This document shows positions 2,287 to 5,214 of a stretch of DNA of 64,000 bases, piece by piece. Source of the DNA: a phage; the sequence record PZ166176.1. The stretch is one strand, 5' to 3'. The number at the start of each line of letters is the position of its first letter. Position 1 is the stretch's first letter. Position numbers and translations under genes: made by a program. Under the pieces are notes generated by a model. That model was given only the letters and a program-made list of their open reading frames with translations. It did not search any database and had not been told where the DNA came from.

Positions 2287-2502
2287 ATGCAAAATAGCTT
2301 TTATTTTAGGTGCCGTGCTTGTAATAGGCATTTGACAAACCACTCCAGACGTGATAAAAATGGAGTCATCAAGGAATCAGACCTCTGTTCTATTTGCACA
2401 GGTTTGGCTTTTGATGATAGTCCCGAAAGGGTTTATCAGCATCAATGTATAACAGACGTTCTCGTGTCAAACTTGGTAGAGGACGAACAACTAACAGATT
2501 AG
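2287..2502 (+). CDS. hypothetical Cys-rich protein (possible zinc ribbon)
   Basis: Track ORF 2251-2502; start placed at the internal ATG after GAAGGA; CxxC...CxxC pattern (CRACNRH, CSIC). Confidence 0.4.
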   Translation: MQNSFYFRCRACNRHLTNHSRRDKNGVIKESDLCSICTGLAFDDSPERVYQHQCITDVLVSNLVEDEQLTD

Positions 2503-2510
2503 GAGGAACA

Positions 2511-2759
2511 ATGTCTCTATTAGAAAAACACGTGTTTGAAGATGGTAACGGCAATGCAGTTTTTCTTTTCCATCCAGAAAAATACACATCTGAAAACAAT
2601 GGTACAACTTCTATTGTAATCACTAAAGATGTTAAAGTTATTGATTTCTTGGCTCTGATGCGAGAGATGGATCTTGAAATTAATACTTTTAACGCAGAAG
2701 CTTTGGTTGTTGCTCTTCTGGAAAAGAAAGATAGTGAAGAAGTAGCAGAATATGCTTAA
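2511..2759 (+). CDS. hypothetical protein (82 aa)
   Basis: ATG at 2511 preceded by AGGAGG (2501-2506); the track ORF starting at 2445 is a longer in-frame artefact. Confidence 0.55.
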   Translation: MSLLEKHVFEDGNGNAVFLFHPEKYTSENNGTTSIVITKDVKVIDFLALMREMDLEINTFNAEALVVALLEKKDSEEVAEYA

Positions 2760-2766
2760 ATAACTA

Positions 2767-2796
2767 TTGACAAACGTATCCTTCATATGTTAGGAT
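2767..2796 (+). promoter_or_regulatory. promoter-like site (actattgacaa motif: -35 TTGACA, 18-nt spacer, -10 TAGGAT) with inverted repeat GTATCCT...AGGATAC
   Basis: Consensus -35 hexamer; weak -10; the 7-bp inverted-repeat arms at 2776-2782 and 2793-2799 overlap the -10 region. Confidence 0.4.
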
Positions 2797-3005
2797 ACGT
2801 TCATCAAGTGTGGTAACAGGGTCGTTGACTTTTGTTAAGAGGGGCTTGCACTGCGGTAGTGTTAGAGACTACTTCTTCAGAGGTTAGCTACCAAAGAGGA
2901 AAAGGAATAGTCTCGGCTCAAGAACTTTTACGCTGAAAGTTGGGCTTGGTCTTAGAGAATGTAGCGGTTCTCTACAATCGTCAGCGTCTCTGTTACCACA
3001 TTTAT

Positions 3006-3080
3006 GGCCCTGTAGCTCAATGGGAGAGCTGTCGGCTCATAACCGATAGGTAGCTGGATCGAAACCAGCCAGGGCCACCA
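3006..3080 (+). tRNA. tRNA with anticodon CAT (Met, or Ile2 if lysidine-modified), CCA encoded
   Basis: Cloverleaf folded by hand: acceptor GGCCCTG/CAGGGCC, D-stem GCTC/GAGC, anticodon loop CTCATAA, T-stem GCTGG/CCAGC, discriminator A, CCA. Confidence 0.8.
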
Positions 3081-3082
3081 AC

Positions 3083-3157
3083 GTCTTTATGGTGTAATGG
3101 ATAGCACAGGAGTCTTCTAAACTCTTAGTCAAGGTTCGATTCCTTGTAAAGACACCA
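3083..3157 (+). tRNA. tRNA-Arg (anticodon TCT), CCA encoded
   Basis: Acceptor GTCTTTA/TAAAGAC, anticodon stem GGAGT/ACTCT with loop CTTCTAA, T-stem CAAGG/CCTTG with loop TTCGATT, discriminator A, CCA. Confidence 0.8.
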
Positions 3158-3353
3158 GAACATTTTAACATGAATTAGCTCAAGTGATTTGAACCCACTA
3201 CTGATCATGGTGGCAGAGAATGAGGCAAGTATGTCAGACATTATAAACAAAGGCCACGGTTATATTAGAAGACATAAATGCTCGAAGAGCACCGTTCGTT
3301 GAGAACGGGGGTTGGTGGAGTCACCATTCATGGTAAAATGTTTTAAAAAACTA

Positions 3354-3383
3354 TTGACAACTAACATTATTTTATGTTAGATT
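3354..3383 (+). promoter_or_regulatory. promoter-like site (-35 TTGACA, 18-nt spacer, -10 TAGATT) with palindrome TAACAT...ATGTTA
   Basis: Same actattgacaa motif as at 2767 and 4103; lies just upstream of tRNA-Ser. Confidence 0.4.
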
Positions 3384-3391
3384 ATAAGTAT

Positions 3392-3482
3392 GGAAGGGCA
3401 AATCGACGTGGCGACGAAAACGGTCTTGAAAACCGCCGAGCTTGAAAGAGCCTTGGGAGTTCGACTCTCCCTCCTTCCGCCA
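3392..3482 (+). tRNA. tRNA-Ser (anticodon TGA), long variable arm, CCA encoded
   Basis: Acceptor GGAAGGG/TCCTTCC, anticodon loop CTTGAAA, long variable arm, T-stem GGGAG/CTCCC with loop TTCGACT, discriminator G, CCA; the D-arm is irregular. Confidence 0.7.
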
Positions 3483-3486
3483 GATT

Positions 3487-3572
3487 GGTAGATTGGTGAA
3501 ATGGTAGCCACGACAGTTTGCTAAACTGTAGTCGGAAACGGCGTGTAGGTTCGAGTCCTACATCTACCGCCA
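3487..3572 (+). tRNA. tRNA-Ser (anticodon GCT), long variable arm, CCA encoded
   Basis: Acceptor GGTAGAT/ATCTACC, D-stem GTGA/CCAC (read as in the analysis), anticodon stem ACAGT/ACTGT with loop TTGCTAA, T-stem GTAGG/CCTAC, discriminator G, CCA. Confidence 0.8.
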
Positions 3573-3578
3573 AATTAA

Positions 3579-3664
3579 GATGAGTTGGCTGAATGGTTTA
3601 AGCGGCGGACTGTTAATCCGTGTTCGAAAGAACGATATAGGTTCAAATCCTATACTCATCGCCA
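3579..3664 (+). tRNA. atypical tRNA: serine-like body (long variable arm, discriminator G) with anticodon GTT (Asn codons), CCA encoded
   Basis: Acceptor GATGAGT/ACTCATC (perfect), anticodon stem GCGGA/TCCGT with loop CTGTTAA, variable arm hairpin GTTC-GAAA-GAAC, T-stem ATAGG/CCTAT with loop TTCAAAT, discriminator G, CCA. Isotype cannot be settled by eye. Confidence 0.55.
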
Positions 3665-3671
3665 GAATTAT

Positions 3672-3750
3672 GGACTTGTAGAGTTAAGGTAAACCCCCAG
3701 TCGCCAAGAGGCTTCTGGAATTGCAGGTATCGAATCCTGCCGAGTCCCAG
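3672..3750 (+). pseudogene. degenerate tRNA-like element (no CCA, 8-nt T-loop, no clean anticodon arm)
   Basis: Acceptor GGACTTG/CGAGTCC and T-stem GCAGG/CCTGC are recognisable, but the D and anticodon arms do not fold canonically and CCA is absent. Confidence 0.3.
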
Positions 3751-3754
3751 CTTT

Positions 3755-3829
3755 GCTCCTATAGTATAATGGCTATTACAACGGTTTTGTAATCCGTGGA
3801 TCTCTGTTCGATTCAGAGTGGGAGCACCA
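3755..3829 (+). tRNA. tRNA-Thr (anticodon TGT), CCA encoded
   Basis: Acceptor GCTCCTA/TGGGAGC, anticodon loop TTTGTAA with a U-U loop-closing mismatch, T-stem CTCTG/CAGAG with loop TTCGATT, discriminator A, CCA. Confidence 0.75.
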
Positions 3830-4102
3830 ACACAACATTAAGAGCACTGTGATTGATCGTCGTATCCTGTGCACAAGGTCTGCTCGAAAGACAGTGTTCT
3901 TAGTATTGTGTTGATCACAAAAAGAGTTACCTGAAACTTGACCGGAGTAGGGTTGGATGGGGCAAAAGAAGAAGCGGCTCTCCCATCGACAGCAACGAAG
4001 AATAATATTTGACTTTGGTTTTGTATTATTTTAAGTTAGCTTACCGAACGTAGGGCTAGTCACCCAATGGGATACTCGTCACTGTCCCGCTCAATAAAAC
4101 TA

Positions 4103-4132
4103 TTGACAACCAATAGTAAAATGTAGTATAGT
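4103..4132 (+). promoter_or_regulatory. sigma70-like promoter (-35 TTGACA, 18-nt spacer, -10 TATAGT) with inverted repeat ACTATTG...CAATAGT
   Basis: Good match in both hexamers; lies upstream of tRNA-Gly and restarts transcription inside the tRNA region. Confidence 0.55.
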
Positions 4133-4143
4133 AAAGATGTAGG

Positions 4144-4217
4144 GCGTTCTTGGTGTAGCGGTAGCATTCCGTCCTTCCAAGTCGGCGGCACGAGTTCGAT
4201 CCTCGTAGAACGCTCCA
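4144..4217 (+). tRNA. tRNA-Gly (anticodon TCC), CCA encoded
   Basis: Acceptor GCGTTCT/AGAACGC (perfect), anticodon loop CTTCCAA, T-stem ACGAG/CTCGT with loop TTCGATC, discriminator T, CCA. Confidence 0.75.
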
Positions 4218-4315
4218 AATTATTTAATAAAGGGTTGCCAGAAAACTTTCTCTTTTACTCATGGTTTTCTCCTTCTCTCACACCTCTTCTGGTTGCCCTT
4301 CATTAAATGATTTAT

Positions 4316-4391
4316 TGGTTTGTAGTGTAGTCCGGTAGCACACGACACTTTGACTGTCGTAGGTTTGGTTCAAATCCAGACAGACCAGCCA
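4316..4391 (+). tRNA. tRNA-Gln (anticodon TTG), CCA encoded
   Basis: Acceptor TGGTTTG/CAGACCA, D-stem GTGT/ACAC region, anticodon stem CGACA/TGTCG with loop CTTTGAC, T-stem TTTGG/CCAGA with loop TTCAAAT, discriminator G, CCA. Confidence 0.75.
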
Positions 4392-4396
4392 TATAA

Positions 4397-4473
4397 CGGA
4401 ATTTAGCTCAGTTTGGTAGAGCATACGCTTTGGGAGCGTAGGGTCGCAGGTTCGAATCCTGCAATTCCGACCA
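4397..4473 (+). tRNA. tRNA-Pro (anticodon TGG), CCA encoded
   Basis: Acceptor CGGAATT/AATTCCG (perfect), anticodon stem TACGC/GCGTA with loop TTTGGGA, T-stem GCAGG/CCTGC with loop TTCGAAT, discriminator A, CCA. Confidence 0.85.
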
Positions 4474-4479
4474 ATCAAA

Positions 4480-4553
4480 TGTTTCGTAGTTCAATGGTAG
4501 AACCCACGACTGATAATCGTGAGACACAAGTTCGATTCTTGTCGAAACAACCA
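4480..4553 (+). tRNA. tRNA-Ile (anticodon GAT), CCA encoded
   Basis: Acceptor TGTTTCG/CGAAACA, D-stem GTTC/GAAC, anticodon stem CACGA/TCGTG with loop CTGATAA, T-stem ACAAG/CTTGT with loop TTCGATT, discriminator A, CCA. Confidence 0.85.
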
Positions 4554-4555
4554 GT

Positions 4556-4625
4556 TTCCCGTTAGACTTACAGGATAAGAGTTCCACAGCTTATTGTGAT
4601 GTTGGTTCGAATCCAGCACGGGATA
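4556..4625 (+). pseudogene. degenerate tRNA-like element (no CCA, irregular anticodon arm)
   Basis: T-arm GTTGG-TTCGAAT-CCAGC and an acceptor pairing with a 1:72 mismatch are present, but the anticodon region gives only a 4-bp stem with a 6-nt loop and ACA replaces CCA. Confidence 0.3.
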
Positions 4626-4631
4626 CATAAT

Positions 4632-4710
4632 AGCGGGATAGAGGAGTCTGGTCGTCCTCGCCAGTTTCATATGCTGGAGATCATCGGTTCAAATCCGATT
4701 CCCGCCTCCA
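4632..4710 (+). tRNA. tRNA with anticodon CAT and an A1:C72 mismatch (second Met/Ile2-type tRNA), CCA encoded
   Basis: Acceptor AGCGGGA/TCCCGCC, D-stem GAGG/CCTC with an 11-nt loop, anticodon stem CCAGT/GCTGG with loop TTCATAT, T-stem ATCGG/CCGAT with loop TTCAAAT, discriminator T, CCA. Confidence 0.65.
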
Positions 4711-4825
4711 AATATCGCTTGCCAGCGGTATCTTTGAAGACCTTGCCTGGTTCCTTCTAAGATGGAGGGGTGCGACTCCTTAACGCACAATTATAATAAA
4801 GCATTTCAAATTAACAGTATTTATT

Positions 4826-4848
4826 AGCCTCCTTATTGGAGGCTTTTT
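4826..4848 (+). terminator. rho-independent terminator after the tRNA cluster
   Basis: Hairpin AGCCTCC-TTATT-GGAGGCT followed by TTTT. Confidence 0.75.
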
Positions 4849-4867
4849 GCTATCTATTGAATAAAAC

Positions 4868-4896
4868 TTGACTTATTATTTTTTATATGTTAAGAT
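4868..4896 (+). promoter_or_regulatory. sigma70-like promoter (-35 TTGACT, 17-nt spacer, -10 TAAGAT)
   Basis: Hexamers read directly; followed by AGGAGG and the ATG at 4918. Confidence 0.5.
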
Positions 4897-4917
4897 AAAG
4901 TTTAGGAGGATTTTATT

Positions 4918-5214
4918 ATGCCTAAACTAAAACGTGGTCGTGGAAGACCAACAGCCGAAATGCAACAGATCTACGCAATGGATGCGGCGCAAGCAAGTGT
5001 AAAAGAATTATTTGCAGAGCATTATTTAGAAGCTATGCGATATATTGTTGAACTTGTTAATGATAAGGATGCAGCAAAACCTCTCCGCTTCCAAGCAGCT
5101 AAAGCTATTAAAGAGCAAGTAGAAGAATGGTTAGAAGAACATTATGAAGCTATGGAAGAAGAAACCCCTGCCGTGCAGAATACAGATGACGTTCCTAAAA
5201 AGATCGTAATCTAA
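4918..5214 (+). CDS. hypothetical protein with AT-hook-like KRGRGRP motif (98 aa); small terminase subunit possible
   Basis: Strong RBS; own promoter and two downstream terminators; N-terminal PKLKRGRGRPT motif suggests DNA binding; lies upstream of the large terminase. Confidence 0.5.
   Translation: MPKLKRGRGRPTAEMQQIYAMDAAQASVKELFAEHYLEAMRYIVELVNDKDAAKPLRFQAAKAIKEQVEEWLEEHYEAMEEETPAVQNTDDVPKKIVI

Follow-up and report, generated by a model that had tools for sequence, protein, structure and literature searches.

Stable RNAs other than tRNAs have been known in phage tRNA clusters since T4, with GOLLD and ROOL recognized later, and none has an assigned function. The T4 genome record annotates rnaC and rnaD (species 1 and 2) as 'small, stable RNA' within its tRNA cluster. 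These two RNAs are presumably released by the tRNA-processing machinery, and we know of no function assigned to either. GOLLD and ROOL are encoded close to phage tRNA islands, and loop-loop contacts assemble them into homo-oligomers (PMC12286853). Here we analyze positions 2800–3005 of a 64,000-nucleotide (nt) stretch of phage DNA (PZ166176.1; the whole stretch is referred to as the window), a region at the head of a tRNA cluster. A first-pass annotation had described it as a structured non-coding leader upstream of the first tRNA, closed by a 10-base-pair (bp) inverted repeat and possibly giving rise to a stable small RNA processed from the tRNA precursor, and had proposed folding, an Rfam covariance search, and comparison across related phages as checks. 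We find that the region represents a previously uncatalogued phage RNA family, ~160–205 nt long and located in tRNA gene clusters, and is not ordinary spacer. The general kind, the non-tRNA RNAs of phage tRNA islands, is known; the family itself is new.

The locus resembles that of T4 rnaC and rnaD in placing non-tRNA RNA within the tRNA cluster of a lytic coliphage, abutting tRNA genes, although the T4 RNAs measure ~120–140 nt and the RNA described here ~200 nt. Furthermore, rnaC has a tRNA-like T-arm and 3′ end, whereas the present RNA has neither and is built of a terminal helix (P1), an inner helix (P2), and four hairpins (H1–H4). Two covariance models were used throughout: R1, derived from the clade to which the window belongs (the phAPEC8 clade), and R2, built only from seven distant sequences with that clade excluded. 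Run with filters off over T4 positions 68000–76000, neither gave a significant match at rnaC or rnaD. GOLLD and ROOL are likewise structured phage or prophage RNAs beside tRNA islands, and the RNA described here shares the tRNA-cluster setting and has an apical loop that is complementary to itself. In contrast to this RNA of 160–205 nt, they are ~600–800 nt long; their Rfam models are unmatched, and oligomerization is here a prediction.

The 206-nt stretch folds far better than expected from its composition. Its minimum free energy is –76.8 kcal/mol, compared with –52.7 ± 4.2 kcal/mol for dinucleotide shuffles (z = –5.76), and none of 200 shuffles was as good. The inverted repeat noted previously is real; its left arm, GTGGTAACAG, lies at 2810–2819 as described, but its partner, CTGTTACCAC, occupies 2990–2999 rather than 2991–3000, one base to the left. 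These 10 bp are only the core of a terminal helix of ~22 bp, P1, whose strands span 2806–2828 and 2981–3003 on the plus strand: 2806–2821 pairs with 2988–3003, U2822 and U2987 form a mismatch, and 2823–2828 pairs with 2981–2986. A sigma-70-type promoter precedes the fold on the same strand (2767–2796; –35 TTGACA at 2767–2772, TG at 2788–2789, –10 TAGGAT at 2791–2796). This promoter, already proposed at 2767, matches 10 of 12 consensus positions in a consensus scan, has an 18-nt spacer and an extended –10 TG, and is conserved in the sister clade (phiWec179, L057, and L076). Its placement suggests that transcription starts at ~2803. P1 begins 3 bases past this putative start and ends 2 bases short of the tRNA-Met gene at 3006, so that the RNA itself would run from 2803 to 3005 (plus strand, ~203 nt). 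The earlier remark that no plausible open reading frame (ORF) is present agrees with our analysis: stops occur in every frame, and the only frame that stays open, 34 codons beginning with TTG, lacks both an ATG and a Shine-Dalgarno sequence and differs at about one third of its residues between clades. Taken together, the fold z-score, the helix, the promoter, and the non-coding status indicate that the observation is real and not due to chance.

Stronger support comes from related phages. By blastn, close relatives comprise 71 phage records, 65 of the phAPEC8 type and 6 of the phiWec179 type, the latter described as a separate genus (PMC12695924); the IMG/VR contig L057 represents a third variant within this clade. 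The close relatives are ~80% identical, and their substitutions fall in helices and are compensated. RNAalifold on these sequences returned 73 pairs, 9 of them double-changed, and among the five distinct sequences of the clade 98.6% of positions are paired with 11 compensatory pairs, a level not reached in 500 shuffles. R1 scores 220 bits on 2803–3005 and 30 bits on the reverse strand. It also finds full-length matches in the tRNA clusters of other phages, with E values from 4e-16 to 2e-6: L062, a 149-kb IMG/VR contig (57.8 bits), Citrobacter phage Tr1 (36 bits), Salmonella phage FSL SP-058 (35.7 bits), Klebsiella phages FKP3 and KP13-26 (~32 bits), and TR2 and UTK0002 (~26 bits). Default Infernal filters miss every one of these distant homologues, and all were recovered only with the filters off. 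Searching by blastn with the distant copies added phi1_175008, KP2025, SP-076, and As2. Conversely, R2 matches the window at 2803–3005 with 83.9 bits (E ~1e-23); because this model was built without the phAPEC8 clade, the homology is reciprocal. The L062 copy, folded independently, adopts the same architecture (z = –5.82).

Covariation across the family is extensive. Among the seven distant copies, 40 of 67 pairs are compensated (0 of 500 shuffles as high). In the 10-sequence alignment A11, 94.1% of cells are in standard pairs and 46 of 62 pairs have changed on both sides; the covariation score is 0.767, compared with 0.261 for column shuffles (0 of 500 as high) and at most 0.168 when partners are slid. 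An independent segment table prepared by hand gave the same picture, with covariation in 20 of 29 pairs. On the evidence of these alignments, compensatory substitutions are shown to uphold the fold across three deep phage clades, as they do within the clade of the window, and the proposal of a structured non-coding RNA is borne out at both depths. We are highly confident that the element is a genuine conserved structured RNA. Comparison across phages thereby yielded a conserved structure, the opposite of the outcome that the first-pass annotation had named as speaking against its proposal.

The alignments show a common family architecture in which P1 leads through a GUUAARA junction into P2, P2 encloses H1, H2, and H3, and H4 lies beside P2. 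P1 is present in all 10 family members with 13–28 bp (23–28 bp in the Stephanstirmvirinae copies, 13 bp in the Schitoviridae copies); its sequences are unrelated between clades, and 18 of 26 pairs have changed on both sides. The junction reads GUUAAGA in the window (2834–2840) and GUUAAAA in the other clades. Its first two bases, G2834 and U2835, pair with A2974 and C2975 after H4; all 10 sequences have the same G-C and U-A pairs here, and the UAA that follows is invariant as well. P2 is formed by GGGGC (2841–2845) and GUCUU (2949–2953), with compensatory changes in four of its five pairs. Within P2, H1 (2848–2862, GCACU-loop-AGUGU) is paired in 100% of cells. When segmented by hand, H1 has three invariant basal pairs and compensation at pairs 4–6, whereas in the model-fitted alignment all five pairs have changed on both sides, a count that stems partly from a one-column shift in the Schitoviridae rows. 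H2 (2865–2914) is long and interrupted by internal loops, carries the palindrome UAGCUA in its apical loop (2885–2890), and covaries at 5 of the 6 pairs of its basal stem. H3 (2915–2946) has a 3-nt AAG/AGA bulge, a loop of ACGCU (2930–2934), and 9 covarying pairs out of 13; its length of 32 nt is the same in all 10 hand-segmented sequences, with UTK0002 and TR2 set by hand. H4 (2954–2973), in which all five stem pairs covary, corresponds to the TAGAGA…TCTCTA hairpin recognized earlier. The other hairpin suggested at that time, GTAGT…ACTAC (2856–2860/2868–2872), falls outside the conserved fold, and its bases contribute instead to H1 (3′ strand) and H2 (5′ strand).

This architecture matches no described class. 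A search of 2800–3005 against Rfam 15 (4227 models) returned nothing at gathering thresholds, and at E ≤ 10 only two meaningless 11.6-bit fragments of long non-coding RNAs; the L090, L092, and L082 copies gave nothing at E ≤ 1. The absence of any Rfam match marks the family as new. No tRNA cloverleaf was found in 2800–3005 by ARAGORN, which called 10 tRNAs elsewhere in the window, or with the Rfam tRNA clan and RF00005. Several specific identities were also considered and rejected. The consensus is a branched fold with two junctions and not the rod of 6S RNA, and no Rfam 6S match was obtained. A resemblance of GAGGAAAAGGAAUAGUC to the CR-I motif of RNase P RNA is lost in phiWec179 and again has no Rfam match. 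GGA motifs that might suggest a CsrA sponge are unconserved and lie outside loops. The motifs of Y RNAs and of retron msr-msd are absent, and neither a reverse transcriptase nor a Ro-like protein is present in the anhysbys annotation at 1–50000 and 105760–117977. No transcriptome study of these phages was found in the literature searched.

We next consider where the RNA occurs. The window is 100% identical over 2445–3170 to Escherichia phage phAPEC8 (JX561091; Phapecoctavirus), and Phapecoctavirus genomes match its first 12 kb at ≥99%. The RNA stands at the head of a tRNA cluster (3006–4710, 10 tRNA genes by ARAGORN), and the large terminase gene lies ~3 kb downstream of the RNA locus. The family falls into three clades: the phAPEC8 type; Klebsiella and Citrobacter phages of the Stephanstirmvirinae; and Salmonella N4-like Schitoviridae (Ithacavirus and Triduovirus), which are podoviruses and belong to another family than the Stephanstirmvirinae myoviruses. 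A promoter in front and a tRNA directly behind are features of the phAPEC8 clade only. In Tr1, the RNA begins 3 nt past a tRNA (Rfam tRNA, 41 bits), and in SP-058 and UTK0002 it begins a few nucleotides past tRNA-Asn. As read from the sequence, L062 and FKP3 have in this position an element with T-arm-like and acceptor-like pairing that ends in CAACCA, and KP13-26 has a short hairpin ending in ACCA; ARAGORN and Rfam call neither. The 3′ neighbors outside the phAPEC8 clade are unrelated small ORFs (clade 2) or spacer (clade 3). In every lineage examined, therefore, the element adjoins a tRNA or tRNA-like gene, and this position in a tRNA cluster is its constant feature, which argues against a cis-acting leader and for a separate, stand-alone RNA gene. 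The label 'leader' fits only the phAPEC8 clade, since relatives have a tRNA or tRNA-like element, rather than a promoter, on the 5′ side of the RNA. Apart from this word, our results support the first-pass interpretation in its essentials.

The family has a narrow distribution. The phi92-like Justusliebigvirus phages of E. coli retain the flanking ORF and tRNA but have neither the promoter nor the RNA, and the stop codon of this upstream ORF runs directly into the first tRNA. The window holds a single copy, and blastn found none in 5,426 complete E. coli genomes or in PLSDB plasmids. A core-motif scan of one genome per prokaryotic species gave no strict matches and 90 relaxed ones, none of which scored with R2; by this route, no bacterial or prophage copy was found. 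Core-motif scans of IMG/VR returned only contigs from the three phage lineages already known, and a 15-mer scan of the same collection with GGTTAGCTACCAAAG returned 53 loci, all chance matches in coding DNA. A two-motif pattern in JGI metagenomes hit 16 loci, of which 2 were true, both from close relatives. The lack of copies elsewhere indicates that the family is rare and, so far, confined to virulent enterobacterial phages. Two ideas about its neighborhood were discarded: a block in which the RNA was transferred together with tRNA-Arg(UCU), since this tRNA lies downstream in every lineage but its sequences are not close, and a conserved protein partner beside the RNA, since the downstream ORFs differ among L062, FKP3, and Tr1.

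Some records in this set carry irregularities of their own. In FSL SP-058 and SP-076 (NC_021772 and NC_021782; L090 and L091), the deposited tRNA coordinates are ~1.1 kb off the tRNAs found by ARAGORN and Rfam, so that the RNA seems to lie 'under' annotated tRNA-Lys, Pro, and Tyr. Klebsiella-type Stephanstirmvirinae encode a tRNA with anticodon CUA, labeled 'Pyl' by ARAGORN, 0.3–0.5 kb downstream of the RNA (L062 1629–1703; L093 3027–3101); it is a possible amber suppressor. In the region examined, MG065650 (Campylobacter phage B15) shares 99.4% identity with phAPEC8, OR584014 (Pseudomonas phage PsgM04F) is a near-identical match to phiWec179, and one Acinetobacter-labeled record likewise matches E. 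coli-infecting phages of the subfamily. The Campylobacter, Pseudomonas, and Acinetobacter host labels on these records look doubtful.

The explanation that we favor, with a probability of about 0.6, is a composite one: a conserved RNA that is excised along with the tRNAs, is stable, and acts in trans. The RNA would be made within the tRNA precursor and released by host tRNA-processing enzymes. RNase P forms the mature 5′ ends of tRNAs; in this phage, the 3′ end of the RNA would accordingly arise from its cut at 3005/3006, and transcription initiation from the promoter at 2767 would set the 5′ end. Relatives would instead generate the 5′ end by processing the CCA end of the preceding tRNA. The paired termini, with a 5′ overhang of ~3 nt and a 3′ overhang of 2 nt, would conform to the design of stable RNAs. 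P1 locks both ends together and would shield them from RNase E and 3′ exonucleases, yielding a stable trans-acting RNA like T4 species 1 and 2, and a contact between the loops of H3 and H4 probably staples the core. More speculatively, the H2 palindrome may let two copies kiss into a homodimer, and the resulting particle may act on a host or phage factor during infection, either as its scaffold or as a decoy for it.

The loops offer some basis for these suggestions. In the apical loop of H2, the same structural position holds a 6-nt palindrome in each clade, although its sequence differs: UAGCUA in phAPEC8, UGAUCA in the Klebsiella and Citrobacter phages, and (C)GUUAAC(G) in the Schitoviridae, with a joint chance probability of ~0.001–0.002. 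Like the HIV-1 dimerization initiation site (DIS) and the packaging RNA (pRNA) of phi29, the hairpin thus presents a self-complementary apical hexamer that varies with lineage and yet remains self-complementary. The 5′ and 3′ ends of phi29 pRNA are also paired in a terminal helix. However, those elements operate in a retroviral genome and a DNA-packaging motor, they are not homologous to this RNA, and we see no sign of a packaging role here. As for H3 and H4, the AGCG of the H4 loop (2963–2966) is complementary to the CGCU of the H3 loop (2931–2934). The match takes the form (A)CGCU:AGCG(U) in phAPEC8 and L057 and UUGC:GCAA or GCAG in clades 2 and 3, and reaches 6 bp in TR2. The H4 loop also contains GUAGC (2961–2965), complementary to GCUAC in the H2 loop; this kissing contact was rejected as a family feature, as it is found in the phAPEC8 clade only. 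We regard the H2 palindrome and the H3-H4 complementarity as suggestive, and dimerization through the H2 loop as less likely than not.

A related possibility, which we consider unlikely, takes these features further. The RNA would form a compact self-associating particle, a homodimer joined through the H2 palindrome, that is made alongside the phage tRNAs and neutralizes a host factor or acts on the phage tRNAs themselves. Candidate host factors would be a tRNA-targeting defense nuclease or an RNA-processing enzyme, and the second matching loop that H4 provides in the phAPEC8 clade would permit higher-order assemblies there. The interior of the RNA is only 68–82% identical between the two genera with its pairing preserved, compared with mostly 88–100% for the rest of the tRNA cluster, three short divergent blocks aside; such fast, structure-preserving change could fit an arms race. 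A catalytic role as a ribozyme is another possibility.

Several considerations weigh against the stable, trans-acting RNA that we favor. The start site, RNase P cleavage, and tRNA 3′-end processing enter the proposal as inferences, and neither a partner protein nor a target emerged from the analysis. Because the counts were made on alignments fitted to the model, the paired fraction is inflated, and the family is small, with ~90 phage records that reduce to effectively 10 distinct sequences in three clades. The palindrome statistic is just ~1e-3, and further 6-nt palindromes occur elsewhere in H2. Complementarity between H3 and H4 shrinks to 3 bp in phiWec179; in L062 and Tr1, the best scan match is the wobble-containing GUUG:UGGC (4 bp), with UUGC:GCAA, of equal length, coming from a reading of the printed loops; chance alone could fairly easily give two loops a 4-bp match; and in the phAPEC8 clade the H4 loop could pair with H2 instead. 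P1 alone may be a generic processing feature, because the remaining spacers of the cluster all close into long end-to-end helices as well. This last point leads to a different account, in which the element is a cis-acting leader or processing element of the tRNA operon that is later degraded, having shielded the 5′ end of the precursor, insulated tRNA folding, prevented Rho termination of the untranslated transcript, or provided an RNase III entry site as the stems of rRNA operons do. Its location directly after a promoter and directly before tRNA-Met is consistent with such a role, as is the size of P1, since ~22 bp with one mismatch is typical of an E. coli RNase III substrate. The spacers at 3158–3345, 3825–3915, and 4214–4315, and others in L059 and L090, are also long end-to-end helices beside tRNAs. 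Indeed, the RNase III stems of rRNAs, T7 early RNAs, and T4 tRNA precursors likewise consist of a long helix formed from the flanks of a structured RNA in a polycistronic non-coding transcript; in contrast, the helix of the Schitoviridae members, at just 13 bp, falls short of a classical RNase III site, and cleavage here is hypothetical. Moreover, the homologues in the other two clades are not leaders, being placed after a tRNA or tRNA-like element and before ORFs or spacer. The promoters at 3354 and 4103 serve tRNAs that have no comparable leader, and the four interior helices together with GUUAARA, the AAG bulge, and loops L3 and L4 are conserved or covarying to an extent that exceeds the needs of a processing stem. 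We therefore consider a cis-acting leader distinctly unlikely.

It is quite improbable that the RNA is instead a precursor for RNase III whose functional products are duplex-derived small RNAs or a trimmed core. This account would make sense of the constancy of the P1 sequence among phAPEC8-clade phages, in which 23 of 26 pairs are unchanged while the interior drops to 68–82% identity, and the helix length suits the enzyme. However, P1 is unrelated and covarying between clades, and consequently no P1-derived sequence is conserved. Since the flanks of the whole tRNA cluster are 95–100% identical between the two genera, the invariance may reflect background or recombination, or overlapping constraints from the start site and RNase P. 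We assign a very small probability to a riboswitch or other cis-regulatory 5′ untranslated region for downstream genes, even though the size, multi-helix junction, and loop-loop contact recall large aptamers and an ORF with a Shine-Dalgarno sequence starts 15–25 nt past P1 in L062, FKP3, and Tr1. The downstream neighbor varies, from a tRNA here to unrelated ORFs in clade 2 and spacer in clade 3; no Rfam riboswitch matches, no terminator follows P1 and no alternative structure sequesters a Shine-Dalgarno sequence, and a P1 of 22–28 bp is too stable for switching. Least probable of all is that the element has no function as RNA, being a relic (a degenerate tRNA or the remnant of a mobile element), a DNA palindrome, or a small protein gene. 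The terminal inverted repeat does recall the ends of miniature inverted-repeat transposable elements, PsgM04F annotates a 34-amino-acid coding sequence (CDS) here, and part of P1 with the junction (GGGUCGUUGACUUUUGUUAA) bears what we take to be a loose likeness to tRNA-Lys acceptor and anticodon-arm sequence. This possibility is already largely refuted: compensatory changes in eight helices indicate selection on RNA pairing, G-U pairs occur on the plus strand only (30 bits for the reverse strand versus 220), no other copies exist in the window, E. coli genomes, or plasmids, the open frame is unconserved as protein and has neither ATG nor Shine-Dalgarno sequence, and neither ARAGORN nor Rfam calls a tRNA there.

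The promoter at 2767 has further features of interest. Judged by its motif, it is of a phage-specific type, with AACTATTGACAA ... TATGTTAgAT found again at 3354 and 4868. It also contains a dyad symmetry (2773–2801, not assigned to a strand) with 10-bp arms, AACGTATCCT at 2773–2782 and AGGATACGTT at 2792–2801, separated by 9 nt and covering part of the spacer and the –10 element. In phiWec179-type phages, the arms read AAGCGTGTCTTA and TAAGATACGCTT, and two compensatory changes retain the symmetry. Since both arms changed together, the symmetry is under selection; it could serve as an operator for a dimeric regulator or form a hairpin in read-through RNA from the upstream gene.

The remainder of the cluster also merits comment. 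Including its spacers, it is 88–100% identical between Phapecoctavirus and the phiWec179 type (2400–5000 compared with L002), a few divergent blocks aside, whereas the protein genes flanking it are 40–65% identical between the two genera. From this difference it follows that either the cluster was recently exchanged horizontally or all its spacers are under very strong constraint. The end-to-end helices of the spacers make the terminal-helix design generic in the cluster, with RNase III involvement possible. The spacer after tRNA-Arg (3158–3345) has an end-to-end fold (z = –4.09) with a long closing helix, a branched interior, and a weak terminator-like U run at its end; it is mostly 85–95% identical to phiWec179 except for a divergent 40-nt block at 3240–3279 (42%), and the flanking CDSs are 55–65% identical. 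Its fold suggests that it is possibly a second non-tRNA RNA. A long, near-perfect hairpin is found at 3825–3915, starting at the 3′ end of tRNA-Thr in the window, and at L059 7052–7143; its core at 3840–3915 is 100% identical between the two genera. The phi92-like phages have the same hairpin design after tRNA-Gly, and SP-058 has a long hairpin before tRNA-Ser (L090 2226–2317). These hairpins are matched by the models in P1 only, those at 3825–3915 and L059 7052–7143 by R2 and that of SP-058 by R1. Between tRNA-Gly and tRNA-Gln, the spacer at 4218–4315 forms a ~24-bp stem (z = –5.68) and is 100% conserved in phiWec179; its C/U-rich loop, UUUUCUCCUUCUCUCACACCUCUUC, resembles the anti-Shine-Dalgarno end of 16S rRNA.

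Three tRNA-like stretches (3392–3478, 3665–3754, and 4554–4631) are not called by ARAGORN. The first scores 37 bits on the Rfam tRNA-Sec model, below threshold, and corresponds to tRNA-Ser(UGA) of L057; the other two show, as read by eye, T-arm-like and acceptor-like pairing. All three may be degenerate or unusual tRNAs. The first gene of the cluster (3006–3080, plus strand), with anticodon CAU, is called tRNA-Met by ARAGORN and scores 64.5 bits on the Rfam tRNA model. It is 95–96% identical over ~80 nt to a tRNA of T4-like Tequatrovirus, which one record labels tRNA-Ile, and its acceptor and T arms resemble those of E. coli ileX. By these resemblances, the gene may encode a lysidine-modified tRNA-Ile2 and have passed between unrelated phages.

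In GenBank, the region that holds the RNA is blank or carries spurious small CDSs (PsgM04F, FKP3, and Tr1). The family nevertheless offers a tractable example of its kind, being short (~200 nt), strongly covarying, and carried by virulent phages of E. coli, Klebsiella, and Salmonella that can be grown and engineered with ease, several of which are under development for therapy. If the RNA does assemble into a self-associating particle, genetically tractable E. coli phages would possess a scaled-down equivalent of the GOLLD and ROOL assemblies. Its occurrence in two unrelated phage families, always in tRNA islands, points to horizontal spread and to a function in translation, tRNA biology, or defense evasion.

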